Position numbers and translations under genes: made by a program. From Polyangiaceae bacterium (lineage in GTDB: Bacteria > Myxococcota_A > Polyangia > Polyangiales > Polyangiaceae), in contig JAXLYP010000017.1 in assembly GCA_046351395.1 (NCBI GenBank), positions 193,508-246,456 of the forward strand: a DNA stretch of 52,949 nt, read 5' to 3'. The stretch's first letter is position 1, and each line of letters opens with the position of its first letter. Under the pieces are notes generated by a model. That model was not told where the DNA came from and ran no database searches. It worked only from the letters and a program-made list of their open reading frames with translations. Of the stretch, positions 6,860 to 41,746 are shown piece by piece.

Positions 6860-7703
6860 GCTCGGTCGCGACGCGCGTGTGGAGCTCGAGCACGGTGAAC
6901 CAATCGATGAGCTCGATGCGGAGCGCGCTCACGGCCGACGCGGCCCGCGCCGTGTGCGCGCGGGGGACCTCCGCGAGCGCATCGAGGAACCCCATGTCCG
7001 TCCCCGCTCCGACGGTCGCGCGCTCGCCGCGCGCGGTCTCGCACTCGACGAGCCCCGCGGTGACGCGGATCCAGTGGTTCGCGACATCTCCCGCGCTCCA
7101 GAGGACGTCGCCTCGCTGAAACCGCACGTCCGTGGACGCGCTCGCGATCTCCGCGAGGCCCTCCACGTTCGCGCGCGCGATGGGCGATCTCCGGAGCTGG
7201 ATGACCCGCTCCACGACCGTCAGCTCCTCGTCCCGAAACGTGCCGTGCTCCGGCGGATCGGAGCGATTGGGCAATGGCCCGCGCTCCGCGAGGAGGTCCC
7301 GCGCGAGGCCCCGCAGCACGAAGCGCTGGAGCGCGAAATCCCGTTGGAGCGCGATCCGGACCGCGTCTCCGGGGATCTCGAGCGCGAGCGTCCGTGCCTC
7401 CGTCGTCGCGCTCAGGTGATCGCGCTCCGTGAGGAGCGCGGTGAACCCGAGCGCGCGCTGGCTCTCCACGCGGCCGACCAGGGTGCCTTCGTGCTCCACG
7501 CGCACGCTCCCCTCGAGCACGTAGAGCACGGACGTGATCGGATCGGTCGCGCGCCAGATCACCGCGCGCGGCCGAAACCGCCGGTAGCGGGAGCGCTCCG
7601 CCATGAGCAGGAGAGTGTCCACGCTGACCGATCGAAGATCGGGCATCGAGCCGAGGAGGCGGGCGCGCGCCTCGACGCTCGCGAGCTCGGGCTCAGCTTG
7701 CAT
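6822..7703 (-). CDS. Protein with two cyclic-nucleotide-binding (cNMP) domains
   Basis: Two repeats of a CAP/cNMP beta-roll pattern (…VIWRATDPITSVLYVLEGSVRVEHEG…; …VLWSAGDVANHWIRVTAGLVECE…). The start overlaps the upstream gene's end by 11 nt. Confidence 0.7.
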   Translation of the reverse strand: MQAEPELASVEARARLLGSMPDLRSVSVDTLLLMAERSRYRRFRPRAVIWRATDPITSVLYVLEGSVRVEHEGTLVGRVESQRALGFTALLTERDHLSATTEARTLALEIPGDAVRIALQRDFALQRFVLRGLARDLLAERGPLPNRSDPPEHGTFRDEELTVVERVIQLRRSPIARANVEGLAEIASASTDVRFQRGDVLWSAGDVANHWIRVTAGLVECETARGERATVGAGTDMGFLDALAEVPRAHTARAASAVSALRIELIDWFTVLELHTRVATELTAHLARGLRGD

Positions 7704-10515
7704 GCGGAGTGTCTCGTGGTGCAGAAGGGAACAGCGACGTCGAGGACGGAATCGAGGCTCGGCGCGTCACCTCCGGCGCCTCGGGTTCGGCCGCGCGATC
7801 GGGAGCTCCAGCGAGGAGGGCGCGGGCGCGCGAGAAGTCGGTCACGTCCGGCTCCTCCCTACAGAGCTCCTCGATCCGCGGGAGCTGACTCGTCATCCCG
7901 AGCTCCGCCGCGTGATAGGCAGCGAACTTGCGGAGGATCGCGCTCGAGCTCCCCAGCATCTGCGCGATCGCCGTCTCGTAGTCGAGATCCACGGATGCAT
8001 GGAACTCCTTCCCGCGCGTGCGTCGCTCGACGTCGTCGACGTCATCGACGAGCCCGATGACGGCGTCGCGCAGCGGATTCTTGAGGACGATGTGGATGAG
8101 CTCGACGGCGGTCGCGCGGTGCTCCTTCCCGCCCCGCTCGATGCTCGTGAAGATCGCGTCGATCTCCTCGTTCGGGTTGAGCAGCGCCAGCAGCCGGAAC
8201 ACGCGACCCACCATGTGTCGCTGCTTGTCTCGCAGCAAATCCACGAGCAGGCCGTGCCCGACCGTCGCTCGGCGTGGGTCCTCCTCCCGCCCGCGCCGGA
8301 GCGCGACGAACCGATCGAAGGACCGGTAGGCGCGGGCGACCGTGCGCTGGATCTCCTCCCCGAGGAGGCGCTCGTCGAGGCGCGTCTCGGGCCGCGCGAC
8401 GACGATCTGTCCGAGCGCGAGGATCGAGCGATACCGCACCATCCCATCGGGCTCCTGTCCGAGGTTCGCGAGCAGGATCTCGGGCGCCTCGGGCGAGTCG
8501 ATGTCCGCGAAGAGGCTCGGCACGAGCCTCCGCACCGCCCGCGGGCGATCCCGATCGCGGAGCGCGCGGACGATCGCGCCCGCGCCCGCGGGGCCCGCGG
8601 CGCTCAGCGCGAGGCGGACGTCCGCGCCCACCTGACTGTCTGCGAGCAGGTCGACCAGGGTGTTCGCGGACGTCTCGGTCGCGAGCCCGCCGAGCGCCGC
8701 GATCGCCGCGCGGCGGACGTCGAGCTCGCGCGCGCGCGTGAGCTCGACGATCTCGGGCTCGAAGCGGGTCGCCTTGCGCCAGCCGACGACCTCGGCCAGG
8801 AGGCGCCGGCTCTCCACGCTGCCCTCCGAGACGATCCGCCCGAGCTCGTGGTGAGCCTCTTCCGCCTCCATCATGGAGAACGCAGCCATCGTCGTGAGGA
8901 TCGCCGCGCGGATGTCCGGCGAGGTCTCCCGCGCGAGCTGCTCTCTCCACCGCGTCGCGTCCGGCGCGAGCACCGCGCGAGCGGCCATCGCCTCGGCGCG
9001 GACGCGGATGGAGGGGTGGCGATCCAAGTGGGTGAGCGCGTGGAGCGCGACCTTCCGACCGCGCACGCCGAAGATCCGGAGCGCGGTCACGACGACGGTC
9101 TCCGACGGGTGATACAGGATGAGCCCCGGGATGACGTGGGCCTTCCCCTCCCGATCCAAGATCCGTAGCGAAGACACGACCGTGCTCTCCGCTTCGCTCT
9201 CGAGCGACTCGAGGAGCGACTCGAGGGAGGCCATGTCGAGCCGCATGAGCGCGCCCGCGAGCCGCCTCCGACCGGACGCGAGGGCGTCCTTGAAGAGCTG
9301 CGCGTAGTCGCCTCGGAGCCATGTCGCGAGGACGACCGCGCCCGCGGCCGTGACGACGAGGAGGACGGCGAGCCATCGCGGTGGCAGCTCGGTCGCCACC
9401 CCGACGAGGATGACGACCGAGCCCACCATCTGGGCGCCCCGTTGACCGAGCGCGTCCATGAAGCTCTTGGCGACCGTCCGCGGACCGTCCTCGAGGGGCA
9501 CGAGCAGGAGCTCCGCGGCCGTGCGGTGCACGCTGAAGCGCATGCTGCCGTCCACGGCCTTCGTGATCACGGCGGGCGCGAGCGTGCCCGTGATCGCGAC
9601 GCCGAGGCCCCCGGCGACGAGCCCGAACGGCAGCACCGCGAACACCAACGGGAGAGGCAAGCGCGCGACGAGCGATCGGACCGCGAACACCTGAACGCAG
9701 ACCGAGATCACGTTCAGGACCACGTTCACGCGGCCGAACACGCGCGCGAGCTGGTCGTGCGCGAAGTGGGCGGTGATCTGCGACTTGAAGATGAAGTCCG
9801 AGATCGTGACGGCGATCGTGATGAGGCCGCAGACCGCGACCACCCGTCGGATGTAGGGGTGGCGAAGGGCCGTGCCGAGGCGCTCGCCGAGCGTCCCGTC
9901 GCGCCCGTCGTGCTCGCCGTCGCGCGCGCGTTCGTCGAGGCCGCCGCTCGAGAACAGCATCGGCATCCAGGCGGCGCCGAAGAACAGCACGCCCGCGAAG
10001 AGGGAGAGGTTCGCCGGCGCGACCCACGTGACGAGCCCGACCGCGCCGCTGCCGAGGATCGCGCCGAGCCCGGCTCCGAGCCCGATCATCCCGTAGAGCC
10101 GTTTGGCCTGGCGAATCGAGAAGAGCCCTCCAACGAGGGACCAGAAATGGATGAGGACAATCGTCGAGAGGACGCCCGACCAGATGTAGAAGACATAGAG
10201 CCCGACCTCACCCAGGCTCGGCAGCGCACGGGAGAGCGCGATCGTCCCGAGCGACGAGGCGACCGTCCAGCCGATCAGCACGCGCCGCGGCGTCGTGCGC
10301 CGGAACACGGCTTGGGCGCGCGTCGCGACGAGCGTCGCGGCGGCGAGCGCGACGTACACCCAAGGGAGTCGGCTCGTCGGGATGTGGGCGAGGAACATCG
10401 CGTCGCGCGTCGCCTCGAGGATGCTGTGGCCGGCCACGAAGACGAACAGGAAGACAAAGGCGGTGATCGCATCCCGCCGCTCCGATCGCCGCACCGGGAA
10501 GAGCCGCCGCAGCAC
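7693..10515 (-). CDS. TLC-family (ATP/ADP-translocase-like, Npt-type) membrane transporter fused to a C-terminal HEAT-repeat domain
   Basis: 940 aa. The N-terminal ~430 aa are multi-TM and carry the family-typical block HFWSLVGGLFSIRQAKRLYGMIGLGAGLGAILGS (compare Rickettsia Tlc FWQFANQIT..AKRFYSMFGL). The C-terminal half has HEAT-like repeats (…RRAAIAALGGLATETSANTLVDLLAD…). GTG start is 1 nt after the upstream stop. Confidence 0.8.
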   Translation of the reverse strand: MLRRLFPVRRSERRDAITAFVFLFVFVAGHSILEATRDAMFLAHIPTSRLPWVYVALAAATLVATRAQAVFRRTTPRRVLIGWTVASSLGTIALSRALPSLGEVGLYVFYIWSGVLSTIVLIHFWSLVGGLFSIRQAKRLYGMIGLGAGLGAILGSGAVGLVTWVAPANLSLFAGVLFFGAAWMPMLFSSGGLDERARDGEHDGRDGTLGERLGTALRHPYIRRVVAVCGLITIAVTISDFIFKSQITAHFAHDQLARVFGRVNVVLNVISVCVQVFAVRSLVARLPLPLVFAVLPFGLVAGGLGVAITGTLAPAVITKAVDGSMRFSVHRTAAELLLVPLEDGPRTVAKSFMDALGQRGAQMVGSVVILVGVATELPPRWLAVLLVVTAAGAVVLATWLRGDYAQLFKDALASGRRRLAGALMRLDMASLESLLESLESEAESTVVSSLRILDREGKAHVIPGLILYHPSETVVVTALRIFGVRGRKVALHALTHLDRHPSIRVRAEAMAARAVLAPDATRWREQLARETSPDIRAAILTTMAAFSMMEAEEAHHELGRIVSEGSVESRRLLAEVVGWRKATRFEPEIVELTRARELDVRRAAIAALGGLATETSANTLVDLLADSQVGADVRLALSAAGPAGAGAIVRALRDRDRPRAVRRLVPSLFADIDSPEAPEILLANLGQEPDGMVRYRSILALGQIVVARPETRLDERLLGEEIQRTVARAYRSFDRFVALRRGREEDPRRATVGHGLLVDLLRDKQRHMVGRVFRLLALLNPNEEIDAIFTSIERGGKEHRATAVELIHIVLKNPLRDAVIGLVDDVDDVERRTRGKEFHASVDLDYETAIAQMLGSSSAILRKFAAYHAAELGMTSQLPRIEELCREEPDVTDFSRARALLAGAPDRAAEPEAPEVTRRASIPSSTSLFPSAPRDTPHAS

Positions 10516-10516
10516 G

Positions 10517-11965
10517 TCAGAACCCCGTCGTCCCGCCGACGAGGAACCGGACGCTCTCGGGCTCGCCGCCCTCCGCGAACGGCTTCGTCCCGAAGCCCAA
10601 GAGGAGGTTCAACGCGTGGTCACGGTGATTCGGCGATTGGAACCCCCCGACGAACGAGAACCGGAGTCGCTCGAGTTCGAAGTCCTCGAAGTCGCGCCCG
10701 AACACGTTCCCCACCTGCGCGCGGAGCGTGGCGTCGACGAACGACCAGATGGGCCAGGTGTACGTGACGCTCGCCGCGGCGGACGTCTCGCCGAGGAGGC
10801 GCCCGGGGGTGAAGCCGAGGAGGGGCTCGTCGTCGGGCACGCGATCGGTCCGACCGCTCCCGATGAGCTCCGTGAACGGCACGCGCGCCGTGCTCGAGAA
10901 GGGCTCGATCGCGCGGACGTCCACGAGGAGCCCGAGCACGCGCCGCGTCCCCGTGACGTCGATGAACCCGCCCACGGACCCGCCCACCTGCGCCCACTCG
11001 ACGTGCGACCCGACGTCGCTCCCGAGCTCGGCGTGCGCGTCGAGCCCGACCCCGGAGCCCGGCCCTGGGCGCGGCTGTCGCGAGTCGAGCACGACGCGCC
11101 CACCGACCTTCACCGCGGTGTATCCGGCGAACCCGTCGGGGAGGGGATAGAGCCCTCGAGCGACCGCGCGGGAGATGGGCAGCGTAGGACACTCGTGTGG
11201 CCATACCGGGCAGCTCTCGTCGGAGAACGAGTGGTGCCGGACGACGGCCCAAGCCTCCACGAAATTGGCCTTTCGCGGCTCCACGTGGGTCCGAATGCCG
11301 CCTCCGACCGAGCGCTGCTCGAACCTCGACTCGTCCGCGTAGCGAGACCGGTACCCCACACCGTAGAACAGGTAGTCGGCGCGGACGACCCCGTCCGCCT
11401 CGAGCTGCAGGTTGGAGCGCACGCGGTGAGAGCCGTCGGGTTCGACCTCGACGTCGAGCGGGACGCGGTCGACCACGCGAGCTGCGAAGTACCTCTCGCC
11501 CCCCGTCGCGACCGACGCGCGGAGTTGATTGTCTGTCACGAGGAAGTCGTCGTAGAAGTGGTAGAGGCCGACGCTCGGACGAAAACCGAACTCGTAGAAC
11601 GCCGTCGGGATGAGGCCCACGTTGTGGTGAGGGCCGAACGTGAAGAAGTCGGTCACCTTCGCCACGATGCCCTCGCGGTCGATCACCGTGGTGATCGCGC
11701 CGAGGGGGCGCCGGATGACGTAGTCCGAGACCACGTAGAGCGGCGCGAAGAGGACGCGGGGGATCCAGAGCGCGCCCTCCGCCGCGGTCGTCTCGCGCGG
11801 TCTGCCCTCGTAGTCCTGCGGTGGGCGCTTCTCTCCGGGCGGCCGGGATGGATCCTCGGGGAGCACGGCGGGGTGCTCGGGGACGTCCCCCCGCGCCGGG
11901 GGCGCCGCCGCGAGGGCAGCGCCGAACGCGAAGACCATGGCACCGAGCGCCTTGGGCGAGTTCAT
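10517..11965 (-). CDS. Outer-membrane beta-barrel protein (paralog of 23156-24616)
   Basis: Signal peptide MNSPKALGAMVFAFGAALAAAPPARG. Alternating beta-strand patterns. C-terminal ...RFLVGGTTGF* (terminal Phe OMP signature). The start overlaps the upstream stop (ATGA). Confidence 0.75.
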   Translation of the reverse strand: MNSPKALGAMVFAFGAALAAAPPARGDVPEHPAVLPEDPSRPPGEKRPPQDYEGRPRETTAAEGALWIPRVLFAPLYVVSDYVIRRPLGAITTVIDREGIVAKVTDFFTFGPHHNVGLIPTAFYEFGFRPSVGLYHFYDDFLVTDNQLRASVATGGERYFAARVVDRVPLDVEVEPDGSHRVRSNLQLEADGVVRADYLFYGVGYRSRYADESRFEQRSVGGGIRTHVEPRKANFVEAWAVVRHHSFSDESCPVWPHECPTLPISRAVARGLYPLPDGFAGYTAVKVGGRVVLDSRQPRPGPGSGVGLDAHAELGSDVGSHVEWAQVGGSVGGFIDVTGTRRVLGLLVDVRAIEPFSSTARVPFTELIGSGRTDRVPDDEPLLGFTPGRLLGETSAAASVTYTWPIWSFVDATLRAQVGNVFGRDFEDFELERLRFSFVGGFQSPNHRDHALNLLLGFGTKPFAEGGEPESVRFLVGGTTGF

Positions 11966-13779
11966 TGGAGGGCCGCGCCCGGCTCGTCGGGCCTCTGGAT
12001 GGCGACCATCTTGAAGTGGGAGGACGCCCCGAGATCGTACAAATGAACGCGCAGCGGACCCCGCGCCGCGCCGTTCGAGACGTCGAGCACCGCGTATCGA
12101 AGGGGGTGATCGTCGGGCAGCGAGCGGTCGTCCACGACGCGCGGTAGATCCACGCAGACCGTCGCATCGTCGCCGAGGCTGACGGGGAGGGCCTTTCGCT
12201 GGTCGAGGTCGAGCCCCGTCCGGAGCTCGGCGGCGTACGTGAACCGCGTCCTCGGCCAGGTGGTCGTCTTGTGCGCGAGATCGGTCGCGCAGACGCGGTC
12301 GCCCTCGACGGTCACGTCCGCCAGCGGGGATACGACGCTGAAATACCGCGTGAGGATCTCGTCCCTTCGTTGGATGAGTGTCCGCGTGAGGAACTCCGTC
12401 GCGCGAGGGTCCGTGTAGTCGCCGACCCGCACCGCGGCCGCGATGTTCGCGTCGGTGAAGCGCGACAGGATGCGCGCCGCCCACGCGCCGTCCTCCTCCG
12501 TCATGCGAGCGAACGCGGGGTTCGGGTAGCCGCCCTTCCAGTCCTCGGGCACGAAGTCCGGCCTGAAATAGTCGAACATCGGGAGCTCGGTGTTCGCGAC
12601 GGGCCGGTCCCATGGGCGCTCGAACGAGCCGAGCGTCAGGAGGTCGATCGCCACGTCCTCCGGATCGAAGTAGTAGCTGTGGTTGATCCTCCGGTTCCAG
12701 CTCTCCCATTGCCAATGGCTGCCAAAGCAGTCCCCGAGGTCGATGTACCAATGTGTCGTCCGCCCCGGAGAGGAGTCCTTCGACTCGGGGTCCACGGCGT
12801 CCCAGGTGGTCATCGTGTTTTGCTCGCGCGAATCGAAGTGCCCGAGCCACGCGGCCATGAGCCGCGCTCCGCGGAGATCCCTTCGGTCCTCGTGAGGGAT
12901 GATGTCGTTGGGATCGTCTTCTCGCGTCTCCTCGTACCGGAAGGGGCCGATCGCGCGTCCTGGGAGCCACCGCGACGCCACCATTCGTACGAGCCCACCT
13001 CGCTTCTGTGCGCTGTCGAGGATCGCCTGGAGCTTCCCGTCGTCGAACGGCATTTTGGTGCCCGTATTGTCTGCGTAATCGAGCCCGGGCTCGAGCCTGA
13101 GCCAGGACTTGTCGACGTAGACAATCGTGTCGCACGCGGTCCACCAGCCCGCGGCGTGGTAGAGCCTGGACGCGATGGATGTCGCCCCGGTCGCCTTCTC
13201 GCCTTCGCCCTCGGCGTCTGCCTTCAGCATGAACTTGCCGACGCCCTCGATCTCGACCCGAAAGCCCGGGTTCGCGCCGTTCGCCTTGCCCATGTCGACG
13301 CGCCAGGCGCCCGGTTCGTGCGGGGCCGTGGCGATCGTCTTGTGGCCGCAGCTCCCGCGCGTGATCTCCTCGTCGGTCATCGGCCTCACGCCGATGCGGT
13401 TCGTGAACCAGCTCGAGTCGGGCACCTCGTCGACCGCGTTCACGTTCCGCGCAGCGAAGCCGACGTCCGCGGCGAAGAACTTCACGATGGGCCGGAAGAT
13501 GGTCTTGTCGGCGACGTCCCATAGGAACGGGGACTCGTACTCTTCGGGCCGACAGAGTTGCTTCTTCGCGTCCTTCGGATCGGGGCGACACGGCACTCGG
13601 ACCGCCCGCAGATCCTCGTCGATCCAGACCGGGTCGCGGAGCGGGAACCGCCGGATGCCACCGCACCCCGCGACCGAGGTCGCCGCGCCGCTCGCCAGCG
13701 CCGCGCCGATCACGACTCGGCATGCGGCTCGCAGAATCTTTACGGCCCCCGCCTCGCGATGAGCCCACCGAATCGCCAT
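11962..13779 (-). CDS. Lipoprotein with atypical kinase-like (PKL/PI3K/CotH-like) signature
   Basis: Lipobox ATSVAGC. Candidate nucleotide-binding Lys (GKFMLKAD), catalytic-loop-like LMAAWLGHFDSREQNTM and DFG-like WYIDLGDCFG. 605 aa, non-repetitive, high GC3. Confidence 0.6.
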   Translation of the reverse strand: MAIRWAHREAGAVKILRAACRVVIGAALASGAATSVAGCGGIRRFPLRDPVWIDEDLRAVRVPCRPDPKDAKKQLCRPEEYESPFLWDVADKTIFRPIVKFFAADVGFAARNVNAVDEVPDSSWFTNRIGVRPMTDEEITRGSCGHKTIATAPHEPGAWRVDMGKANGANPGFRVEIEGVGKFMLKADAEGEGEKATGATSIASRLYHAAGWWTACDTIVYVDKSWLRLEPGLDYADNTGTKMPFDDGKLQAILDSAQKRGGLVRMVASRWLPGRAIGPFRYEETREDDPNDIIPHEDRRDLRGARLMAAWLGHFDSREQNTMTTWDAVDPESKDSSPGRTTHWYIDLGDCFGSHWQWESWNRRINHSYYFDPEDVAIDLLTLGSFERPWDRPVANTELPMFDYFRPDFVPEDWKGGYPNPAFARMTEEDGAWAARILSRFTDANIAAAVRVGDYTDPRATEFLTRTLIQRRDEILTRYFSVVSPLADVTVEGDRVCATDLAHKTTTWPRTRFTYAAELRTGLDLDQRKALPVSLGDDATVCVDLPRVVDDRSLPDDHPLRYAVLDVSNGAARGPLRVHLYDLGASSHFKMVAIQRPDEPGAALQ

Positions 13780-19551: not shown

Positions 19552-21070
19552 GTACCCGTTCACCCGTCGGACGGGATCAGCGTGGGGACTTCCAGTTGAG
19601 CTGGGTCGCAAGCTGCAAGGAGGAAGCCGAGGATCGACCTTCGCTGGAGGCGAAGCGAATGGATCACGGTCATGACTCGCTGGGCGAACAGGCATCCTCG
19701 CTCGCTCTGGGAGCCGTAAGAGACCTTGCGCCAAAGCACGAACGGCGCAGCGCGCGCTCGGCATGATTATCAGGGATCCACTTCAGGCTCGAAGGCGAAC
19801 GTGAGGAGGGCGGCCTTGTGTTCGAGTATGTCGAGGCAGGAGCCGGAGACGCCGCGCAGGCGCAGCCCCGCGCCGCGTTCGAGGAGTCCCTCGAACGCCA
19901 TCTGCGCTGGTCGCCATCCTCTGGTACTTGGCGCGTGAGGGTGCCGTCCCGCACCTTGTGCCAGGCGGCAGCACAAGGTGAGAGAGCAGAGAAGGTCCTC
20001 CCCGAGTTGGCGTCCCGCGTCCTTGCGTTCGGAGAAGGCGACGAACTTCCTGATGAGGTGCGCCCAGCAGATCTGCCGCCGCCCTGATGGCCCAGAAGCC
20101 GAACTGCGAGCCTCGGTCCGTCACCAAGGATCCCGGAGAGGGCCCATGAGCGCGGCGATTGTCCGCGACAAGCATCGGCGGTGACGAAGAACACAGCGAC
20201 GGACCGCGTTGCGATCGTCCAGAGCGCGGCATACAGGCCGGCGACTCGCCAGGTGCTTCCGTCCACGTGCTTCACGGGGTGCGCGCGGACGTAGCAGGCC
20301 GCGGCATCCACCGGGGCAGCGATAGCGTCGTTGATCCGCTCCTCGGCCTCGCTGAGGGCGCCGAGCGAGACTGGGATGCCGAAGATCTCGGAGAGGTACT
20401 CCCGGCAACTGTCGCGCCACTGTCCGCGCGCCGAGGAACAGCCGATGAACGCGAGCAGCCGGGGACCGAACATGTGGCTCGGGACGCTGCCGGCAGACTC
20501 GCCCACGTCGTCTTCCCGCAGTCCTTGCAACAGGCCCCGCCCATGACGATCTCGTGAACGTCCGGCTTGATCCTTCGGGGATGTCGACGACCTGATGCAG
20601 GCGCGGGTCGATCCCCTCCGCCGCGAGATTCCGTCCGCCGCATCCTCGACATCTCTTCGGCGCCAGCTTCGTCCGACGGGTCACCTTCTCGGGCGGGAAC
20701 AGCACGCGGGTGTTCGGCTTGTGTCCGGGCTGGCCGCCGCGACTTCGACCGGTCGGCTTCTTCTCGGGTCGAGTCCCAGGTAGATCGGTCGACGGAGGCT
20801 TGCCCGACTCCTCGAGTTCTGCCCCAGCTGCTGCTCGAGGTCGGCGACTCGCACCTTGAGCTGCGCGATCTCCGCGTCCTGCCCGCGATGATCGGTGTCG
20901 CGCTCCGCGACCATGGCAAGCAGCGCCGCGACCTGGGCTTCCAACTTCGCCAGACGCTTGCCGACCGAGGTCACCGACCCACTCGATCATGCGGCGATCC
21001 TCGTGTCGATCCCCGATCGCGTATGATCACATATGATCATGTATGGCTGCTCGACCCGGTGAACGGGTAC
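19552..21070 (-). mobile_element. IS66-family insertion sequence (single-ORF type), 1519 bp, transposase degenerate
   Basis: Perfect 13-bp terminal inverted repeats GTACCCGTTCACC (19552-19564; reverse complement at 21058-21070). The 8-bp TSD is typical of IS66. Internal IS66 transposase motifs are present. Confidence 0.8.
19560..20974 (-). pseudogene. IS66-family transposase, multiply frameshifted
   Basis: Family-typical segments are spread over all three frames: leucine-zipper LAKLEAQVAALLAMV…LEQQLGQNS; GKPPSTD…GGQPGHKPNTR…CRGCGG; FGPRLLAFIG…IFGIPVSLGALSEAE…HVDGSTW; LVTDRGSQF; QICWAHLIRKF; PDNHAERALRR; FVLWRKVSYGSQSERG. Confidence 0.7.
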
Positions 21071-26060: not shown

Positions 26061-26075
26061 GCGCGGAGGGAACGG

Positions 26076-27797
26076 GTGGCCGACGCGCAGACCGAACGCT
26101 GCGAGGGATGTGGCGCCGAGCTGACCGCGGGCGCCCGCTTCTGCGCGACGTGTGGGCGCCCGGTCGCCGCGCTCGCTCCAACCGAGCTGCACGCCCCGAG
26201 GTTCGACGCGACCCCCGCGATGCGCCTCGCGCCGGGGACGATGCTGGGGAGTTACCGGATCGAGGCGCTCCTCGGCGAAGGCGGGATGGGCGTCGTCTAC
26301 CGCGCGCGCGACGAGGTCATGCACCGCACGGTCGCGCTCAAATGTCTGCACACGAACCTCGCGGGGGACGCGGGGATCCGCCGGCGCTTCGGGCGAGAGG
26401 CGCGCGCGCTCGCGACGGTCGTGCACCCGAACGTCGTGCGCGTGTACGACTTCGTCGATCACGAGCACGTCCCCGCGATCGTCATGGAGCTCGTCGACGG
26501 ACCGAGCCTGTCCGCGCACGTCGCGGCGTGGCGTGAGTCCGTCCCGTTCGAGGAGATCCGCGGCCTCTTCGGGCAGATCCTCGCCGCCGTCGGCCACGGG
26601 CACGACAACGGCATCATCCACCGCGATCTCAAGCCAGACAATGTGCTGCTCGCGCGGGAGGCGCGCGGGCTCCGCCCGAAGGTCGTGGATTTCGGGCTCG
26701 CGAAGATCCTCGAGGGGACGACGTACACCGTCACGGGCGCCCTCCTCGGGACGTGCCGGTACATGGCGCCCGAGCAGGTGCAGGACCCGGAGCGCGCGGA
26801 TCTGCGCGCCGACATCTATTCGCTGGGCGTCACCCTCTATCAGCTCGTGACGGGGAGCGTGCCCTTCGATCGGGCGACCCACTTCGCGGTCATGATGGCG
26901 CACGTCAACGAAGCACCGCGCCCGCCATCCTCGATCCGCGCGGACGTCCCTGCGCTCCTCGAGCGCCTCGTCCTCGACGCGCTCGCGAAGGATCCGAGCG
27001 CGCGCCCTCCCTCGTGCGCCGTGTTCCGCGAGCGGCTCGACGAGGCGCTCGCGGCGTACGAGCCGGAGGACGCACCGCCGGGCTCGCTCCCGCGCGTCGT
27101 GCGAGGGGCGGAGACGGCAGATCTCGTGCTCGTGCCCGAGGGTCCGTTTCTCTTTGGCCCGCACCGGCGCCGCGTCGATTTGGACGCGTTCTACATCGAT
27201 CGGACGCCGGTCACGAACGGCGAGTTCGCCGCGTTCGTGAGGGCCACGCGATATGCGCCGTCGGACGAGGGGAGCGGACGGTTCCTGCATCACTTCCGGG
27301 GTGGGAAGGCGCCCGTCGGCGCGGAGCATCACCCGGTGACGCACGTCTCGTGGACCGACGCGCGGGCGTACGCGACGTGGGCGGGCAAGCGACTCCCGAC
27401 GGAGGCGGAGTGGGAGAAGGCCGCGCGAGGGACGGACGGACGGAGGTACCCATGGGGCCGCGCGGAGCCCACCGCGGATCGCGCGAACTACGGGAAGCTG
27501 AACGGTGGAACGACGCCCGTCACCGCGCACGCCGCGGGAGCGTCACCGTACGGTGTGTTGGATCTTGCGGGCAATGTCTGGGAGTGGTGCGAGGACGTCG
27601 ACGATCCCGCGTTTTACCTCGACGGTCCTACGCGGAACCCGAAGAACGCGCCGCGCGCGGGCGAGCGCGCGCGGCACGTGGTGCGCGGCGGCTCCTGGCT
27701 CTACGGCCCGCGCGCCCTGCGCACGGTGTACCGCGCGAGCTTCGAAGCGCACTATCGCGTCGCGAGCGGCGGATTCCGCTGCGCGCGCTCCGCCTGA
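26076..27797 (+). CDS. Ser/Thr protein kinase with N-terminal zinc-ribbon and C-terminal FGE-sulfatase (SUMF1-like) domain
   Basis: CEGCGAELTAGARFCATCG; kinase motifs GEGGMGVVYRA, VALK, HRDLKPDNVLL, DFGLAK, APE. FGE domain: PVTHVSWTDARAYATWAGKRLPTEAEWEKAARG, GNVWEWCED, VVRGGSW. Confidence 0.85.
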   Translation: MADAQTERCEGCGAELTAGARFCATCGRPVAALAPTELHAPRFDATPAMRLAPGTMLGSYRIEALLGEGGMGVVYRARDEVMHRTVALKCLHTNLAGDAGIRRRFGREARALATVVHPNVVRVYDFVDHEHVPAIVMELVDGPSLSAHVAAWRESVPFEEIRGLFGQILAAVGHGHDNGIIHRDLKPDNVLLAREARGLRPKVVDFGLAKILEGTTYTVTGALLGTCRYMAPEQVQDPERADLRADIYSLGVTLYQLVTGSVPFDRATHFAVMMAHVNEAPRPPSSIRADVPALLERLVLDALAKDPSARPPSCAVFRERLDEALAAYEPEDAPPGSLPRVVRGAETADLVLVPEGPFLFGPHRRRVDLDAFYIDRTPVTNGEFAAFVRATRYAPSDEGSGRFLHHFRGGKAPVGAEHHPVTHVSWTDARAYATWAGKRLPTEAEWEKAARGTDGRRYPWGRAEPTADRANYGKLNGGTTPVTAHAAGASPYGVLDLAGNVWEWCEDVDDPAFYLDGPTRNPKNAPRAGERARHVVRGGSWLYGPRALRTVYRASFEAHYRVASGGFRCARSA

Positions 27798-35850: not shown

Positions 35851-36203
35851 GCGGCGAATCAGAACAGGAGCGGCGCCAACGCGAAAGGTGAATGGCGGCG
35901 GGAGCCCGTGGGAGCGAGCTGCCGCCCGAGATCGTTCAGGAAACCGCGCGTCGGTTCAGGGCGGCCGCGCCCAGCGCGATCCTTCAGGGCGTAGCTCGTC
36001 CGCCGCGAAGGTCTCCACAGGGTCGTCGCTCGAGGGCGTCACTCCACGGAGCAGACTCAGGCCACCGGTGTAGTCCAAGGACCACGCGCGCCATTGTCTG
36101 CATACCCAGTGTCGATCGCGTCATCACGCCCGGGTGTCCGCGCGGGACTCGCGGTGGCGAGCGCGTCGTCCGACTGGAGTATCACCGAGCGGGCCGGCTC
36201 TCT

Positions 36204-36223
36204 GACAGTATGGAAATCCATGG
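36204..36223 (+). promoter_or_regulatory. 20-bp conserved element, copy 1 (GACAGTATGGAAATCCATGG)
   Basis: One of three near-identical elements in the 35851-36679 intergenic region. Contains the inverted repeat ATGGA-AA-TCCAT. Confidence 0.5.
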
Positions 36224-36333
36224 TAGTGCGTGGTGACGGCAGCGCGCTTCGAGCGCAGTCGGCGTGATAGGGAGAACCCTTGGTTCGGTGCGCGTGAAAC
36301 GAACCCGCGCCGATCGGGCGCGCTGGTCGCCGA

Positions 36334-36353
36334 GACAATATGGAAATCCATGG
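36334..36353 (+). promoter_or_regulatory. 20-bp conserved element, copy 2 (GACAATATGGAAATCCATGG)
   Basis: As copy 1. Preceded by gcgctggt, as is copy 3. Confidence 0.5.
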
Positions 36354-36403
36354 GTTTGGTGAGCCGGATAGGCGGTTCTCGGGACGCGCTGGTTCTTTCC
36401 TCA

Positions 36404-36423
36404 GACAATATGGAAATCCCTGG
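36404..36423 (+). promoter_or_regulatory. 20-bp conserved element, copy 3 (GACAATATGGAAATCCCTGG)
   Basis: As copy 1. Followed by an A8 run at 36449-36456. Confidence 0.5.
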
Positions 36424-36679
36424 GCGGCGCGCACGAACGTGGCCGCCGAAAAAAAAGGCGCAGGAATCCCTCCATGGCGGGGACGAGGAATATCTCTCTC
36501 GCTCCACGACGGTCGCGCGCATTTCAGGTGTGTTGGTTTGATGGGTTGCAATGGACGCAATCGCTGCGGACGAATGCAGGTCTTGCGCGTCTCGCGTCTG
36601 CCGTGAAGTACCCCCCTTGGGATGGAGTCTAGCGCAGGAGGCCGTCGTCGTGGTGTGAAAGCTGCAGCCGCTGAGGGGC

Positions 36680-37753
36680 GTGACGACCTCCATTCCGCCA
36701 GCGTTCGACGAGGCGCTCGACCCTGCTCCGAGATGTGAGGACGCCGTCGCCATCCTGGACGCGCTCAGCGCTGCGGTGCTCGCGGCGCGCTCCGACGGCG
36801 TCATCACGTGGGCGAACCCATGGGCTGCGCGCGTCCTCCGGCGCTCACGGGCCTCGATCATCGGGCGAAACCTCGCGGATGTGCTGCCTCTCTCGTTCGC
36901 GGTCGGGGAGGACACGCCCTCGGAGCACCGCCGCGGTGAGCTCACTTATCAAGCGGACGACGGCTCCCGTTGTCAGCTCGGATTTTCGCTCGCTCGGCGG
37001 GCCGTCACGGCGCCGGACGAGGTCGCCATCATCGCGCTGTTCCAAGAGATCTCGAGCCTCATCGAGCTGCGACGCCAGCGCGATCGACTCCTCCAGATGG
37101 CGGCGCTCGGGGACGCCCTCCCAGCGGTGCTCCACGAGGTCCGCAACCCGCTCGCGGCGATCACCACGGCGCTGGAGGTTTTGACCGAAGACGAGGGGCC
37201 GCTGCAAGCGGATCTCCACGCGGTTCTGAACGAGGCGCGCCGCGCCACCCTGACGCTCGACGGGCTCGGGGGCCTCGCGCGCGAAACCCACAGTCGGAAG
37301 TGGGAAGCCATCGATCACGCGGTCGCGGAGGCCACCCGAGTGCTCGAACCCACCGCCGCGAGGCGGGGTATTTCCCTTCGAACGACGGGGCCGGCGCTCC
37401 CGCTCCTGCCGCTCGATCGCGCGGCGATCAGCGGCGTGGTGTTCAATCTCGTGCGCAATGCCATCGACGCGTGCGGCGAGGGTGATGTGGTCGCCGTCGA
37501 GGCCCGTTTGCCGTCGCCGAACGAGTTCCTGCTCGAGGTTCGCGACACGGGCCATGGCATGTCCGTTCCCATCGTGAAGCGCTGCACGGAGCTCTTCTTC
37601 ACGACGAAGGATACCGGGTCTGGGATTGGGCTCGCATTGTGCAAGCGGTTCGCGGAGTCGTCGGGAGGATCGCTGGAAGTGGAGAGCGAACTCGGGCGGG
37701 GGACGACGGTATCGGTTCGCGTCGCTCTCCGCACCGACGCACGAGGAGGGTGA
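36680..37753 (+). CDS. PAS-domain sensor histidine kinase
   Basis: PAS-like N-terminus (AILDALSAAVLAARSDGVITWANPWAARVL). H-box LHEVRNPLAAI. N/G boxes VFNLVRNAIDA, DTGHGM, GSGIGLALC. Confidence 0.85.
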   Translation: MTTSIPPAFDEALDPAPRCEDAVAILDALSAAVLAARSDGVITWANPWAARVLRRSRASIIGRNLADVLPLSFAVGEDTPSEHRRGELTYQADDGSRCQLGFSLARRAVTAPDEVAIIALFQEISSLIELRRQRDRLLQMAALGDALPAVLHEVRNPLAAITTALEVLTEDEGPLQADLHAVLNEARRATLTLDGLGGLARETHSRKWEAIDHAVAEATRVLEPTAARRGISLRTTGPALPLLPLDRAAISGVVFNLVRNAIDACGEGDVVAVEARLPSPNEFLLEVRDTGHGMSVPIVKRCTELFFTTKDTGSGIGLALCKRFAESSGGSLEVESELGRGTTVSVRVALRTDARGG

Positions 37754-37754
37754 C

Positions 37755-38120
37755 ATGTCACGTGTCGACAACCTGAACAAGATTCTACGTGGGCTGCAGA
37801 GCGCTTCGCCGGACGTCGAGGCGAGCGCGCTCATCTCGGACGATGGGCTCATGATCGCGAGCGCCCTGCCACAGCACATCGACGAGACGCGCGTCGCCGG
37901 GATGAGCGCCACGCTCTCGAGCCTGGGTACGCGCGCGGCGGCCGAGCTCGAGCGCGGCAACGTCGAGGAGGTCCTCGTGCGGGGCTCGAACGGCTATGCC
38001 GTCATGCTCGCCGCGGGGTCCGGGACGCTCCTCTTGGTCCTTGCGAGCAAGCAGGCGAAGCTCGGCCTCATCTTCCTCGACATGCGTCGGGCGGTCGACG
38101 ACATCCGTCGCGTCCTCTAG
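37755..38120 (+). CDS. Roadblock/LC7 (MglB-like) domain protein
   Basis: ATG lies 1 nt after the HK stop, with GAGGAGGG upstream. LRGLQSASPDVEASALISDDGLMIASALP…LLLVLASKQAKLGLIFLDMRRAV is the typical Robl_LC7 pattern. Confidence 0.75.
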   Translation: MSRVDNLNKILRGLQSASPDVEASALISDDGLMIASALPQHIDETRVAGMSATLSSLGTRAAAELERGNVEEVLVRGSNGYAVMLAAGSGTLLLVLASKQAKLGLIFLDMRRAVDDIRRVL

Positions 38121-38266
38121 ACCCGTTCGAGAAGCGAGCAGATCCCCGGGCCCGGGCGCGACAAAGCGTCATCGGGGTGACGCCCGAGCGTCATCGTTTT
38201 GACAGTCTTCGCGCGATCCACGCGTTAGAACGTACCCAACAGCCGATCGATAGGAGGGGGTCTTCG

Positions 38267-39026
38267 ATGCCCAATACGATTTTGTTCGATCAAGGTGCCC
38301 ACAAGAACGTCCTGCTCGAGGACGTGTCCGCGGGCAGCCACGCCCGTACAAGCCAATCAGCACGTCATCGTCGACCACGCGTCGGGCATGATCCTCGACC
38401 CGGGCGGACACAAGGTCTACTCGAAGGTCCTCTCCGGCACGCTCGCCACCCTCGGCAAGGCGAAGCTCGAGATCCTGTTCCTGTCGCACCAAGATCCGGA
38501 CATCGTCGCCGCGACGAATGGCTGGCTGATGACCACGGACGCCGTGGGCTACGTCTCCGCGCTGTGGACTCGGTTCGTCCCGCATTTCGGGCTCGATCAC
38601 CTCGTCCAGTCCCGCCTCCTGCCGATCCCGGACGAGGGCATGCGGATGAAGCTGGGCCAGAGCGAGCTGCTCATCCTCCCCGCGCACTTCCTCCACTCGC
38701 CGGGAAACTTCCACGTCTACGACCCCGTCTCGAAGATCCTCTACAGCGGCGATCTCGGGGCATCCATTGGTGGGGATTACGTCGAGGTGACCGACTTCGA
38801 CGCGCACCTCCCACTCATGGCGGGGTTTCACCGGCGCTACATGGCTGGGGGGGCCGCGATGCGCGGCTGGGCGAAGATGGTCCGCCAGTTGCCGATCGAG
38901 ATCATCGCGCCGCAGCACGGGGCGCTGTTTCGCGGGAAGGAGATGGTCGATCGGTTCATTGGATGGTGCGAGGGCATGCAGTGCGGACTGGATGTGATGG
39001 GCGATGGTTACCGCATCCCCGCTTGA
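38267..39026 (+). pseudogene. MBL-fold / oxygen-binding di-iron (ODP-like) protein gene with apparent 5' frameshift
   Basis: Strong RBS (TAGGAGGGGG) 8 nt before ATG 38267, giving MPNTILFDQGAHKNVLLEDVSAGSHA with high GC3. The rest (…VQANQHVIVDHASGMILDPGGH…ILFLSHQDPDIV…) is in the 38295..39026 frame. The frames meet near CCC 38343-38345. Confidence 0.6.
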
Positions 39027-40158
39027 GTCCCCGCGCCGCACCGTGCTCGTCGTGGAGGACGAGCCGATGCTGCGCGCCTCGATGGTCAAGGGGCTCGCGA
39101 AGCTCTCGTCGGTCGCGCTCGTCGACGCCGGCTCGCTGCGAGAGGCGCGGCGACTCGCCGAGCTGCACCGCCCCGTGCTGGTCGTGAGCGATCTCGACCT
39201 GCCCGACGGCTCGGGGATCGAAATGGCGTCGACGCTCGACGAGCTCGGTCTTCGCGTCCCGATCCTGTTCGTGTCGGCCTACGTGCGGGAGTACCAGGGG
39301 CGATTGCCGAAGCGGCCGGGGATCGAGGTCTACGAGAAGCCGCTGCCCCTCGAGCGCCTTCGGAGCGCGGTGGAGGCGCACCTCGGGATCGAAGCCGAGG
39401 CTTCGCCGTTCGGTGTGATCGACTTCGTCCAGCTCGCCGGCATGGGGCGGCGCTCGGTCGTCATCGAGGTGCGAGGCCGGATCGCGGGGAGCGGGCGAAT
39501 CGTCATCCGCGCGGGCGAGGTGTGGTCGGCGCGCGACGAGCGGGGCGAAGGAATGGAAGCGTTCAAGCGCCTCGCGTTCCTTCGGGACGCGGTCGTCACG
39601 TGCCGCTCGTTCGATCGTCGCGACTCGTCTCCTCGCATCATCCAAGGGGGCTGCGAGAGTGTCCTGCTCGAGGCGGCGCGCCAGTACGACGAAGCGGGCG
39701 GGGCGCCGCCGGAGCGCGACGAGCTCGGCGACCTCGACGAGGGCTGGGACTCCCGAGACGCGGGCCGCGGTGACAGCTGGGAAGGCTCCGCGCGGTCGCA
39801 CGACCCCGTCGTCTCGTCCACGCCGGTGCCGCCCGGCCGGCATCGGTCCGAGGTTCGCCCGGTCGTGCCGGAGCCCCGAGGGGAATGGCGCTCCGCGACC
39901 CTGACGCCCGCGGTCGACGAGCCGCCGCCGACTCAGCCCTCGACGCGACTTCGTGACGTCGATCCGCGCGAGCTCGCGACGGTCGCACGGCTCGCGGCGG
40001 GGTTCTCCGACGTGTACGAGCGGGGCGTCGACGCGCTGCTCGCGAAGGACTATCGCAAAGCGTACGCGGCGTTCCTCGAAGCGCGAGAGCTCTCGCCGGA
40101 GGACCGGCGGGTCGAAGCGAACCTCGTCCGCCTCCGAGAGATGGGGTTCGGAACGTGA
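39004..40158 (+). CDS. Response regulator: receiver + DUF4388 domain + TPR-like C-terminus
   Basis: TVLVVEDEPML…VLVVSDLDLPDGSG (receiver). FGVIDFVQLAGMGRRSVVIEV…IVIRAGEVWSARDERGEGMEAFKRL (DUF4388 pattern). C-terminal YRKAYAAFLEARELSPED. Confidence 0.75.
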   Translation: MVTASPLESPRRTVLVVEDEPMLRASMVKGLAKLSSVALVDAGSLREARRLAELHRPVLVVSDLDLPDGSGIEMASTLDELGLRVPILFVSAYVREYQGRLPKRPGIEVYEKPLPLERLRSAVEAHLGIEAEASPFGVIDFVQLAGMGRRSVVIEVRGRIAGSGRIVIRAGEVWSARDERGEGMEAFKRLAFLRDAVVTCRSFDRRDSSPRIIQGGCESVLLEAARQYDEAGGAPPERDELGDLDEGWDSRDAGRGDSWEGSARSHDPVVSSTPVPPGRHRSEVRPVVPEPRGEWRSATLTPAVDEPPPTQPSTRLRDVDPRELATVARLAAGFSDVYERGVDALLAKDYRKAYAAFLEARELSPEDRRVEANLVRLREMGFGT

Positions 40159-40817
40159 GGCGCGCCGCGTTCGCCGTTCCCGGAGAGGAACTCGGAGTAT
40201 GGGCGCCCGCCACGCTCCTGTCGTGCGGCGCCCTGGGCGCGGTCGTCGTCGCGGTCCTCCTCGGATCCCCCGCCGTCCCCGCGGAGGCGAGCTCGATGTC
40301 GCGCGCGACGCCGGGCGCGGAGGGCGCCGCAGCGACGGTGTCCACGGACGCGATCCGCCCGCCGACCGCGCCGTCGATCGCGCCGCCGCCGCCTGCACCG
40401 AGCGCGATCGCTGCACCCCCGGGCCCCTCGGGGTCGGGCGGGGCGATCCCTCAATGTCCACCCGTGCGGGTGGGCTTCCAATCGAACGCGTTCGGCCCGA
40501 GCCCCGCGGCGATCACCGAGCTCGACCGGCTCGCGGCGTGGCTGCGCGAACATTCGGACACGACGCTCGTCGTGAGCGGGCACGCCGACGCGGTGGGCAC
40601 GGAGGACGGCAATTTGCGCCTCAGTCACATCCGCGCGGAGTCGATCGCGCGAGAGCTCTCGGCGCGAGGGGTGGCTCGGAGCCGCATGACGGTGCGGGGG
40701 TATGGAGCCTATCAGCCCCTCGAGGGCGTGCTCGAGGACGCCGCAGACAATCGAAGGGTCGTCATCTATGTCCGCGGGGATTGTCTCCGCGGCTTCGAGG
40801 AGGTCATAGGACCATGA
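40155..40817 (+). CDS. OmpA-family (peptidoglycan-binding OmpA_C-like) protein
   Basis: The GTG start overlaps the RR stop (GTGA). TM/signal, Pro-rich linker, then VVSGHADAVGTEDGNLRLSHIRAESIAREL…GYGAYQPL…DNRRVVIYV. Confidence 0.75.
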   Translation: MRRAAFAVPGEELGVWAPATLLSCGALGAVVVAVLLGSPAVPAEASSMSRATPGAEGAAATVSTDAIRPPTAPSIAPPPPAPSAIAAPPGPSGSGGAIPQCPPVRVGFQSNAFGPSPAAITELDRLAAWLREHSDTTLVVSGHADAVGTEDGNLRLSHIRAESIARELSARGVARSRMTVRGYGAYQPLEGVLEDAADNRRVVIYVRGDCLRGFEEVIGP

Positions 40818-41746
40818 TCGTGACACTCACCTTGGTCACCGTGGGCGCGGCGTCCGCGTTGCTGGGCTCGGGATACCTCTTCGGTGCGCGGCGGGGGCGA
40901 ACGGCGCGCGCTGCGCTCGCGGCGCACGCGGAGTCGCGCGAGGTCGCGCTGCGCGAGGCGGAGTCGAGGCTGTCGCTCGAGCGGCGGACGGCGGAGAGCG
41001 ACGCGGCGCGAAGACGGGAGCTCGAGTCGATCCTCGTCCCGCTCACGCGTCAAACCCAGACCTCGAACGAGGAGCTCGAGAAGGTGGAGGAGCTCAAGCG
41101 AGAGGTGCGGGCGATCGCCCGGTCCCTCGCGGAGCGCGACAGCCATCAAGACGAGCTCCGACGCGAAGTCCGGGGCGCGCTCGCGTCGTTCGCGAAGCAG
41201 CCCGGGGACGAGGCGAAGCTCGAGGGCCACGTGCGACGGCTCGTCGCGCCGCTCCTCCAGCGCGAGGAGCAGTCGGAGAAGCTGCGCGACGCGCTGCAGG
41301 AGGTGCTCCGACCCATGATCGAGCGGGAGCGCATGGGACGCGATCTCGCGCGCCTCCCGCCGTCCACGAGCGGGCTCGGCGGGCTCCCCAAGCTGCTCGA
41401 CGCGATCGCCGAGCGGGGCGGGTTCACCGCGGTGGTGCTGAGCGACGACGTGGGGCTCCCGCTCGCGGCGAGCGCGGGCGCCCTGGACGTCGAGACGCTG
41501 GCGGGCTCCTCGTCGCTGCTCCTCACGCTCGCGGACCGCGCCGCGCGCGATGGCGCACCCCCGCCCCAGGCGGTCGTCGTTCGCGACGCGTCGAACCAGA
41601 CACTCCTTCACCGCATCTTCCGCGTCGGGGACGAACGCTTCATGCTGACGGCGGTCGCCCGCGGCGTCGAGATCGCGACGGGCGCGCTGGATCCGGCGCT
41701 TGGAACGCTGGAGCGCGCGCTCGCGCGCAACAACATCGCGGCGTGA
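40814..41746 (+). CDS. Membrane-anchored coiled-coil protein with C-terminal Roadblock/LC7-like domain
   Basis: The ATG start overlaps the OmpA stop (ATGA). N-terminal TM MIVTLTLVTVGAASALLGSGYLF. Charged coiled coil. C-terminus GGFTAVVLSDDVGLPLAASAG…LLHRIFRVGDERFMLTAV. Confidence 0.65.
   Translation: MIVTLTLVTVGAASALLGSGYLFGARRGRTARAALAAHAESREVALREAESRLSLERRTAESDAARRRELESILVPLTRQTQTSNEELEKVEELKREVRAIARSLAERDSHQDELRREVRGALASFAKQPGDEAKLEGHVRRLVAPLLQREEQSEKLRDALQEVLRPMIERERMGRDLARLPPSTSGLGGLPKLLDAIAERGGFTAVVLSDDVGLPLAASAGALDVETLAGSSSLLLTLADRAARDGAPPPQAVVVRDASNQTLLHRIFRVGDERFMLTAVARGVEIATGALDPALGTLERALARNNIAA

Follow-up and report, generated by a model that had tools for sequence, protein, structure and literature searches.

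Within a 52,949-nucleotide (nt) stretch of the genome of a Polyangiaceae bacterium (GenBank assembly GCA_046351395.1, contig JAXLYP010000017.1, positions 193,508 to 246,456 of the forward strand; hereafter the window, about 70% G+C), six plus-strand genes form one translationally coupled operon that is kept in Myxococcota. Its products are a soluble sensor histidine kinase (HK), a small Roadblock/LC7 protein (Robl1), a homologue of the oxygen-binding di-iron protein ODP, a response regulator (RR) that joins a receiver to a PATAN/DUF4388 domain, an OmpA-like protein, and a coiled-coil protein (gene 6) ending in a Roadblock-fold domain (Robl2); no GTPase gene is linked to them. The operon is conserved and uncharacterised: its parts are all of known kinds, and their combination is new. 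We propose, in a judgement balanced evenly between belief and doubt, that it would encode an O2-responsive two-component pathway, independent of any GTPase, whose regulator acts on a Roadblock platform in the cell envelope. Literature searches turned up no paper describing this cassette, which agrees with the remark in the first-pass annotation of this DNA, made from the letters alone, that no characterised example was known.

Operon structure and conservation

The six open reading frames (ORFs) lie at 36680-41746 of the window, at the coordinates assigned to them in the first-pass annotation (Table 1), and the 1-nt spacing and overlaps that it had described between them (37753/37755; 39004-39026; 40155; 40814) were all seen. 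The HK stop codon (37751-37753) is separated from the Robl1 start codon (ATG 37755) by a spacer of a single nucleotide; the RR start codon (ATG 39004) lies inside the end of the ODP gene (stop 39026), an overlap of 23 nt; and the RR/OmpA and OmpA/gene 6 junctions (GTGA and ATGA) are each 4-nt overlaps. The sole real intergenic gap, between Robl1 and ODP, measures 146 nt (38121-38266), and there GGAGG precedes ATG 38267. Five of the six domain assignments made earlier (PAS-HK, Roadblock, ODP, receiver-DUF4388 and OmpA) score above curated Pfam thresholds. The two points on which that annotation had staked itself, i.e., support for its domains and synteny of the gene set in related genomes, both came out in its favour: the domains are confirmed, and the synteny extends to many related genomes.

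Table 1. Features of the six-gene operon, in window coordinates.
Feature	Position	Strand	Length or extent	Basis
Soluble sensor histidine kinase, PAS + HisKA + HATPase_c	36680..37753	+	357 aa	Pfam
Stand-alone Roadblock/LC7 protein Robl1	37755..38120	+	121 aa	Pfam Robl_LC7 2e-15
ODP (oxygen-binding di-iron protein) homologue	38267..39026	+	252 aa after removing one extra base	Pfam ODP 3.2e-67
C-run with single extra base breaking the ODP frame	38343..38345	+		Comparison with L002
Response regulator, receiver + PATAN/DUF4388 + linker + C-terminal hairpin	39004..40158	+	384 aa	Pfam, alignment
OmpA-like peptidoglycan-binding protein, membrane-anchored (predicted)	40155..40817	+	220 aa	Pfam OmpA 1e-14
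Coiled-coil protein, predicted membrane-anchored, with C-terminal Roadblock-fold domain (gene 6)	40814..41746	+	310 aa	AF2, Foldseek
Robl2 Roadblock domain of gene 6	41375..41740	+	aa 188-309	AF2, Foldseek

To survey related loci (given L numbers here), one genome per species was scanned with an alignment of the regulator family, the components were mapped by tblastn, and Pfam-annotated neighbourhoods were added; 31 non-redundant related loci underlie the locus counts below. Among them, the HK is present in 25, Robl1 in 23, ODP in 21, OmpA with gene 6 in 10 and ParA in 10. About 21 loci have kinase, Robl1, ODP and regulator in this order and just as tightly joined, and carriers of the cassette belong to Polyangiaceae, Labilithrix, Kofleriaceae, Archangiaceae, Nannocystaceae and Sandaracinaceae; the gene overlaps are preserved in L003 and L004. 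Chance can hardly explain an arrangement whose order and overlaps are repeated in about 21 independent genomes. One uncultured Polyangiaceae genome (L007) carries two complete six-gene operons in tandem, head to tail, at 2101-6975 and 7234-12036.

Downstream of the regulator the cassette is variable. The OmpA-like gene and gene 6 occupy this position in ten loci (the two are paired in 10 of 10 sister loci), about ten others carry a gene for a ParA/MinD-type ATPase followed by one for a small protein, and L006 and L011 have no tail at all. The small protein of the ParA-type tail is related to the domain of gene 6 (hhalign E 3.6e-4), and its low-confidence model finds MglB as its best Foldseek match (E 3.9e-6); since it too would be of Roadblock fold, two Roadblock proteins appear to be constant whatever the tail. 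The envelope anchor that the first-pass annotation envisaged is not invariant: about half of the sister operons have a ParA/MinD ATPase and a soluble Roadblock instead of the OmpA-like protein and the membrane-anchored Roadblock. The ParA-tail Roadblock (L003, at 11684-12199, and L013, L015, L016, L019, L020 and L021) consists of a conserved Arg-rich N-terminal helix, a disordered linker and the Roadblock domain; we take the helix to resemble the N-terminal ATPase-stimulating peptides of ParA/MinD partners.

The sensor position also varies: a protoglobin gene follows Robl1 in L004, L025 and L086 and stands in place of ODP in L006, and L019 has a second Robl-protoglobin pair 3' of its ParA tail. 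In two rearranged loci (L018 and L035), Robl1 lies beside OmpA and gene 6, and ODP remains with HK and RR. At the far end of the range, L024, L027 and L030 (Nitrospira and Ca. Manganitrophaceae) consist of an isolated pair of PAS-HK and receiver-PATAN genes, with neither Roadblock nor ODP nor tail, and their regulators are without the C-terminal hairpin. Because these Nitrospirota loci hold only that pair, PAS-HK and receiver-PATAN RR are regarded as the two-component core and, judged from gene content, the Roadblocks and sensor seen in Myxococcota as additions to it.

Two Roadblock proteins and no linked GTPase

Robl1 is a clear member of Robl_LC7 (PF03259; 56.7 bits, cut-off 23). Its nearest solved structures are a Thorarchaeota Roadblock (7f8m, E 2e-31), MK-D1 Roadblock3 (9jue, 2e-13) and CvnB5 (3leq, 5e-11), the last being its closest solved bacterial relative, and its similarity to MglB (E 8e-4) is far weaker than that to 7f8m or CvnB5. 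The median identity of Robl1 across loci is 74%, that of ODP 66%, that of the kinase 45% and that of the regulator 40%, so that Robl1 is by far the best conserved of the operon products, which fits a hub with several candidate partners. Over 119 amino acids (aa), Robl1 is 50% identical to the crystallised Roadblock of Thorarchaeota SMTZ1-45 (PDB 7f8m, KXH72322.1), bacterial MglB being far more distant; this closeness could reflect transfer between the domains of life, an ancient subfamily common to both, or contamination of the archaeal bin with bacterial DNA.

The second Roadblock domain was recognised by its fold. In Pfam, gene 6 gave no Robl_LC7 match at E<=10 and only sub-threshold similarity to LAMTOR5 (E 0.035-0.13); a profile search against PDB sequences gave weak, likewise sub-threshold links to CvnB5, Rv3364c and LAMTOR5, and comparison of its domain with Robl1 by hhalign gave E 0.006 at a probability of 6%. 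An AlphaFold2 (AF2) model built with an alignment of 52 homologues (predicted local distance difference test, pLDDT, 87) has one helix at residues 2-179, followed by an alpha-beta-beta-alpha-beta-beta-beta-alpha domain with pLDDT >93. Its best Foldseek match in the PDB is Myxococcus xanthus MglB (6hjm, E 1.4e-6, TM-score 0.64-0.70), and the next are Asgard Roadblocks, Thermus MglB and Ragulator subunits (LAMTOR). The earlier designation of gene 6 as a coiled-coil-Roadblock protein thus finds no backing in Pfam and is correct at the level of the fold. The helix opens with a hydrophobic segment (hydropathy of the N-terminal 19-mer, 1.85). The family is small, with 339 representatives at E<=1e-3 among 1.84 billion proteins, and 55 matches carried no name beyond "hypothetical protein".

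In the OmpA-like protein, the OmpA domain (PF00691) covers aa 110-190 (54.7 bits, cut-off 27.2) and includes the motifs GHADAVG (142), NLRLSHIRA (153) and NRRV (199), GHxDxxG, NxxLSxxRA and NRRV being typical of OmpA-like peptidoglycan-binding domains; a hydrophobic segment lies at about aa 13-45. Similarity to the NCBIfam families YiaD, Pal and YfiB was found, with every score under the cut-off. From these segments and the model, both the OmpA-like protein and gene 6 are predicted to be membrane-anchored. Two other readings were set aside: that of a stator component, as by eye the transmembrane segment is without the conserved Asp of MotB, and that of anti-phage defence, for which PADLOC gave the OmpA domain no more than a generic resemblance to MotB/ZorB and gene 6 a marginal match.

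The claim that no GTPase accompanies the operon held throughout the 53 kb window: a tblastn search with a reconstructed MglA sequence as query gave nothing below E 1, and a six-frame scan of positions 1-52949 found the Walker A (P-loop) motif in no substantial ORF; of its only two matches, one lies in an ORF of 42 residues and the other spans a stop codon. An MglA-like gene is likewise absent within about 8-10 kb in 30 of the 31 related loci. In Sandaracinus amylolyticus (L003), an Arf/MglA-like GTPase is encoded at 19714-20436 on the minus strand (Pfam Arf 4e-5; tblastn to MglA 7e-8), 8 kb from the cassette behind unrelated genes, where it adjoins a 120-aa ORF (20449-20811, minus strand) without a Pfam match. 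The premise attached to the claim, that Roadblock proteins normally partner GTPases, was too strong: in a census of prokaryotic MglB-family Roadblocks, 328 of 749 were uncoupled to any MglA gene (PMC4316618), and because orphan Roadblocks are common, the absence of a GTPase is by itself unremarkable. What the cassette does provide is a defined, conserved and compact setting in which to ask what GTPase-free Roadblocks do, with culturable carriers in Sandaracinus amylolyticus and, if the assignments of metagenome-assembled genomes hold, in Archangium. To our knowledge, MglC is the only orphan Roadblock studied since that census.

The oxygen-sensor homologue and its broken frame

The ODP of Treponema denticola is an O2 sensor for chemotaxis (PMC7666581). 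The match of the homologue encoded here to the ODP family (PF19583) spans profile positions 1-194 of 194, and after correction of the frame its residues 3-248 align with solved ODPs over their full length (6qrq, E 1.6e-69; 6qnm, E 5e-63). The blocks HQDPD (aa 74), HFLH (140), GDLG (161) and QHG (216) are all present and recur in the two solved ODPs, the second block as HFMH in 6qnm and the third as GDIG in 6qnm and 6qrq alike; HQDPD, HFLH, GD(L/I)G and QHG presumably form the ODP metal site. The redox or O2 cue suggested in the first-pass annotation gains strength from the sister operons, where a protoglobin gene joins or replaces ODP in the same position, and from the interchange of ODP and protoglobin the input can be predicted with unusual clarity to be O2 or a related gas.

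In the window, the first 26 codons from ATG 38267 are in one frame and the remainder to 39026 in another. At the C-run where the frame breaks the window reads CACGCCCGTACAAG, and L002, an independent assembly that is 99.85% identical over 1355 nt, reads CACGCCGTACAAG and has an intact ODP; the sole gap between the two falls at 38343-38345. ODP is also intact in L001, which is 85% identical. The frameshift noted earlier is thus present in the window, but because so close an independent assembly is without the extra C, it is most likely an error of assembly rather than biology.

Kinase and response regulator

The kinase has PAS (3e-6), HisKA (7e-7) and HATPase_c (6e-21) domains in Pfam and intact H-box (HEVRNP, aa 152), N-box (NLVRNA, 256), G1 (DTGHG, 289) and G2 (GSGIGL, 313) motifs; both a transmembrane-like segment and an LPxR tail are absent from its sequence. 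The regulator consists of a receiver (aa 14-123; Response_reg 3e-12), a PATAN/DUF4388 domain (136-231; DUF4388 7e-6, profile positions 7-121 of 122), a Pro/acid-rich linker (232-330; 15% Pro) and a TPR-like helical hairpin (331-384), without a DNA-binding domain. An exact-sequence look-up of the regulator matched no recorded gene; its protein is identical to one annotated in a Polyangiaceae metagenome-assembled genome. Most of its homologues carry a precomputed PF14332 annotation. In an alignment of 27 of them, receiver residues E18, D19, D63 and K112 are invariant, and a C-terminal block, ERGVDALL...ANLxRLRxMG, is conserved among the homologues. The pair has the features of a classical two-component system, i.e., H, N, G1 and G2 boxes in the kinase and an acidic pocket, phospho-acceptor Asp and Lys in the receiver. 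What suggests specific phosphotransfer between them is adjacency: the HK homologue adjoins the regulator in 25 of the 31 loci, the two-gene Nitrospirota loci included.

Comparison with known systems

The cassette falls outside the MglA/MglB, conservon, ODP-chemoreceptor and PatA-type classes, a defining feature of each being absent or, for the PatA type, reversed (receiver before PATAN). By analogy, it would work most like the RomR/MglC/MglB system of Myxococcus xanthus, fed here by a dedicated kinase and a gas sensor. RomR likewise starts with a receiver and ends in a conserved alpha-helical segment, the two being joined by a disordered Pro-rich linker, and the system has two different Roadblock-fold proteins: one of them, MglC, is bound by the C-terminal helix of RomR and in turn binds the other, MglB (PMC10329633). 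Here the hairpin of the regulator co-occurs with an adjacent Roadblock gene. The likeness has its limits, however. No MglA, RomX or RomY is linked to the cassette, and the similarity of its Robl1 to MglB is distant (E 8e-4); its regulator carries a PATAN domain and ends in a TPR-like hairpin rather than a Glu-rich helix; one of its Roadblocks is predicted to be membrane-anchored through a transmembrane helix and coiled coil; and it co-encodes a kinase and a gas-sensor protein.

Each of the other systems shares one side of the cassette. As in Treponema denticola chemotaxis (ODP TDE2498, receptor TDE2496 and CheA), a stand-alone ODP is encoded beside signalling genes (PMC7666581), but its partners here are a PAS-HisKA kinase, a Roadblock and a receiver-PATAN regulator, whereas there they are a sensor-less chemoreceptor and CheA; no methyl-accepting chemotaxis protein, CheA or CheW was found in the operon or the flanking ORFs scanned. 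The cassette would thereby extend ODP signalling from coupling with a chemoreceptor and CheA to a classical histidine kinase. As in the Streptomyces conservon (CvnA kinase, CvnB Roadblock, CvnC and the GTPase CvnD), a small Roadblock gene lies directly 3' of a histidine kinase gene (PMC4316618). The conservon kinase, however, is membrane-bound with HAMP and an LPxR tail, whereas that of the cassette is soluble with PAS; neither CvnC (DUF742) nor a CvnD GTPase is among the six products, to which a regulator, ODP, an OmpA-like protein and a second Roadblock are added.

The PatA-type regulators of cyanobacteria (PixE, PixG and PilG) are also receivers fused to PATAN/DUF4388 without a DNA-binding domain. 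PATAN serves in them as a protein-binding output domain; in Synechocystis it goes to the membrane and has two pilus motor proteins, PilB1 and PilC, as binding partners (bioRxiv 10.1101/2021.06.11.447907). They differ in having no added linker and TPR-like hairpin and in receiving their input from a chemosensory CheA rather than a classical HisKA kinase, and no pilus genes lie near the cassette. Finally, the predicted neighbourhoods of group 1 Rup GTPases (Wuichet & Sogaard-Andersen 2015; predicted only) are conserved and bring together a coiled-coil protein, a signalling protein (for instance a histidine kinase) and a membrane protein that has a peptidoglycan-binding OmpA domain at its C-terminus (PMC4316618), but these neighbourhoods are uncharacterised, are built around the Rup small GTPase and are without Roadblock, ODP or PATAN.

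A proposed oxygen-responsive pathway and its alternatives

In the pathway that we propose, ODP would be a stand-alone sensor of O2, possibly of Fe(II) or redox state, a role in which protoglobin would serve, alone or beside ODP, in the sister operons. ODP would modulate autophosphorylation of the PAS kinase, directly or via Robl1, and the kinase would phosphorylate the receiver of the regulator. Because it is without a DNA-binding domain, the regulator presumably acts by binding proteins and not through transcription: its PATAN domain and C-terminal hairpin would engage a Roadblock platform made of Robl1 and the Roadblock domain of gene 6, held at the inner membrane by the transmembrane helix and coiled coil of gene 6 and fixed to peptidoglycan by the OmpA-like partner. 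The output would be local, i.e., the recruitment, positioning or activity of an envelope-associated machine under the control of oxygen. In sister operons, the same front end would drive a ParA/MinD-type ATPase and a soluble Roadblock. That ParA/MinD-type tail indicates a spatial, positioning-type output, to which the interchange of OmpA and ParA tails, with a Roadblock kept in both, also points, and which could be tested by localisation and interaction. Of the signalling module that the first-pass annotation had imagined, the operon, the six domain assignments, the lack of a linked GTPase and the frameshift are now observed; the coupling of ODP to kinase, regulator and envelope is what we infer.

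Several points weigh against this pathway. Each of its arrows is drawn from gene order, domain identity and analogy, and where a partner of ODP is known, it is no PAS kinase but a cytoplasmic chemoreceptor together with CheA (PMC7666581). The DUF4388 match of the regulator is marginal (26.5 bits, cut-off 25), and its order of domains, receiver then PATAN, is the reverse of that in PatA-type regulators (bioRxiv 10.1101/2021.06.11.447907). All 19 loci with an adjacent Robl1 have the hairpin, and eight of the nine without one lack it (19/0/1/8; Fisher p 3e-6), which speaks for the pathway, but this correlation is confounded by phylogeny, as the loci without both are the most distant and shared ancestry inflates the p value. 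The model of the ParA-tail Roadblock has the expected topology, yet its pLDDT is 60 and its alignment holds four sequences. In L010, no kinase gene adjoins the cassette. Unrelated genes, different in each genome examined, flank the cassette, with no conserved extra neighbours (pili, motility, GTPase) among them; because the flanks differ in every genome, the cassette can be taken as a self-contained unit. An unlinked GTPase of the MglA/SofG type may also lie elsewhere in the genome, with which the search of the 53 kb window is compatible.

This last point leads to the most serious alternative, unlikely though we consider it: that the Roadblocks regulate such an unlinked MglA/SofG-type GTPase in trans, as GTPase-activating protein, guanine nucleotide exchange factor or scaffold, and that the operon is no GTPase-free module but the oxygen input to the canonical polarity and motility switch of myxobacteria. 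Both MglB and MglC work on MglA or in its vicinity, MglC as an orphan Roadblock alongside the response regulator RomR (PMC10329633); both Robl2-type models (gene 6 and the ParA-tail protein) match MglB best; genes for homologues of MglA and MglB in some cases have a PATAN gene close by (PMC4316618); and Sandaracinus has its Arf/MglA-like GTPase 8 kb from the cassette. However, neither the 53 kb window nor the 8-10 kb around 30 of the 31 loci yielded an MglA-like gene, Robl1 is nearer in sequence to Asgard Roadblocks and CvnB5 (2e-31 and 5e-11) than to MglB (8e-4), and where a P-loop protein is linked to the cassette, as it is in half of the sister operons, this is an ATPase of the ParA/MinD type rather than a GTPase. 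We think it still less probable, and would be surprised to find, that only kinase, regulator and ODP signal, with Robl1 a kinase accessory as in conservons and OmpA and gene 6 a separate, co-transcribed structural pair. The isolated HK-RR pair of Nitrospirota, the replaceable tail (missing from L006 and L011) and the kinship of Robl1 with CvnB5, the Roadblock of a conservon, where its partner is a histidine kinase (PMC4316618), would all agree with such a division. Against it, RR, OmpA and gene 6 are joined by 4-nt start/stop overlaps in the window and in L004, and in L003 the same 4-nt overlap joins RR to a ParA gene in the OmpA position; the last protein of either tail has a Roadblock fold, which one would hardly expect of unrelated cargo; and in the rearranged loci Robl1 goes with OmpA and gene 6, not with the kinase.

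The third gene could instead encode an enzyme, either O2- or NO-reducing or a hydrolase of metallo-beta-lactamase fold, in a stress or detoxification unit whose kinase senses through its own PAS domain. The protein does belong to the metallo-beta-lactamase superfamily (Lactamase_B 2e-16) and has weak similarity to flavodiiron nitric oxide reductases (NCBIfam 2e-4; 2q9u 5e-4), and the kinase does carry a PAS domain; its similarity to sensor ODPs (E 1e-69), though, dwarfs that to flavodiiron proteins (5e-4), the flavodoxin domain is absent, protoglobin, a gas-binding haem protein, fills the same gene slot in sister operons, and the ODP gene sits between signalling genes in about 21 genomes, all of which makes an enzyme very unlikely. 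That the operon is decaying in this genome, with a genuine ODP frameshift and a non-functional module, we hardly credit at all: the frameshift is there in the window sequence, but it is a single-base insertion in a C-run that the 99.85%-identical assembly is without, the rest of the ODP is 97% identical at the protein level to the intact protein of L001 with no other lesion, and the other five genes are intact.

Returning to the oxygen-responsive pathway, we extend it only tentatively, and with more doubt than confidence, to Myxococcota as a whole: these would have a class of gas-sensing module that had escaped notice, with a stand-alone O2 sensor (ODP or protoglobin) and a two-component pair acting on a GTPase-free platform of two different Roadblocks, a heterodimer either fixed to the cell wall by the OmpA-like protein and the transmembrane coiled-coil Roadblock or partnered with a ParA/MinD-type ATPase. 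If this were true, bacterial Roadblocks would be regulators or scaffolds of non-GTPase machinery, SIMIBI-class ATPases included, and oxygen would directly control subcellular positioning in aerobic, surface-moving bacteria.

Sequence around the operon

No promoter-like site was found in a sigma-70 scan, and terminator-like sites were no more numerous than in shuffled sequence; a sigma-54 consensus search found no site upstream of the kinase and fewer matches than in shuffles. Rfam gave 0 matches over the whole window. The roughly 830 nt 5' of the kinase (35851-36679) hold no convincing gene and are somewhat lower in G+C, and about 130 nt directly 5' of the kinase start are still alignable with the 85%-identical L001. 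Elsewhere in the window, an ORF at 26061-27794 encodes a Ser/Thr protein kinase with an N-terminal zinc ribbon and a fused C-terminal FGE-sulfatase (formylglycine-generating-enzyme-like) domain.

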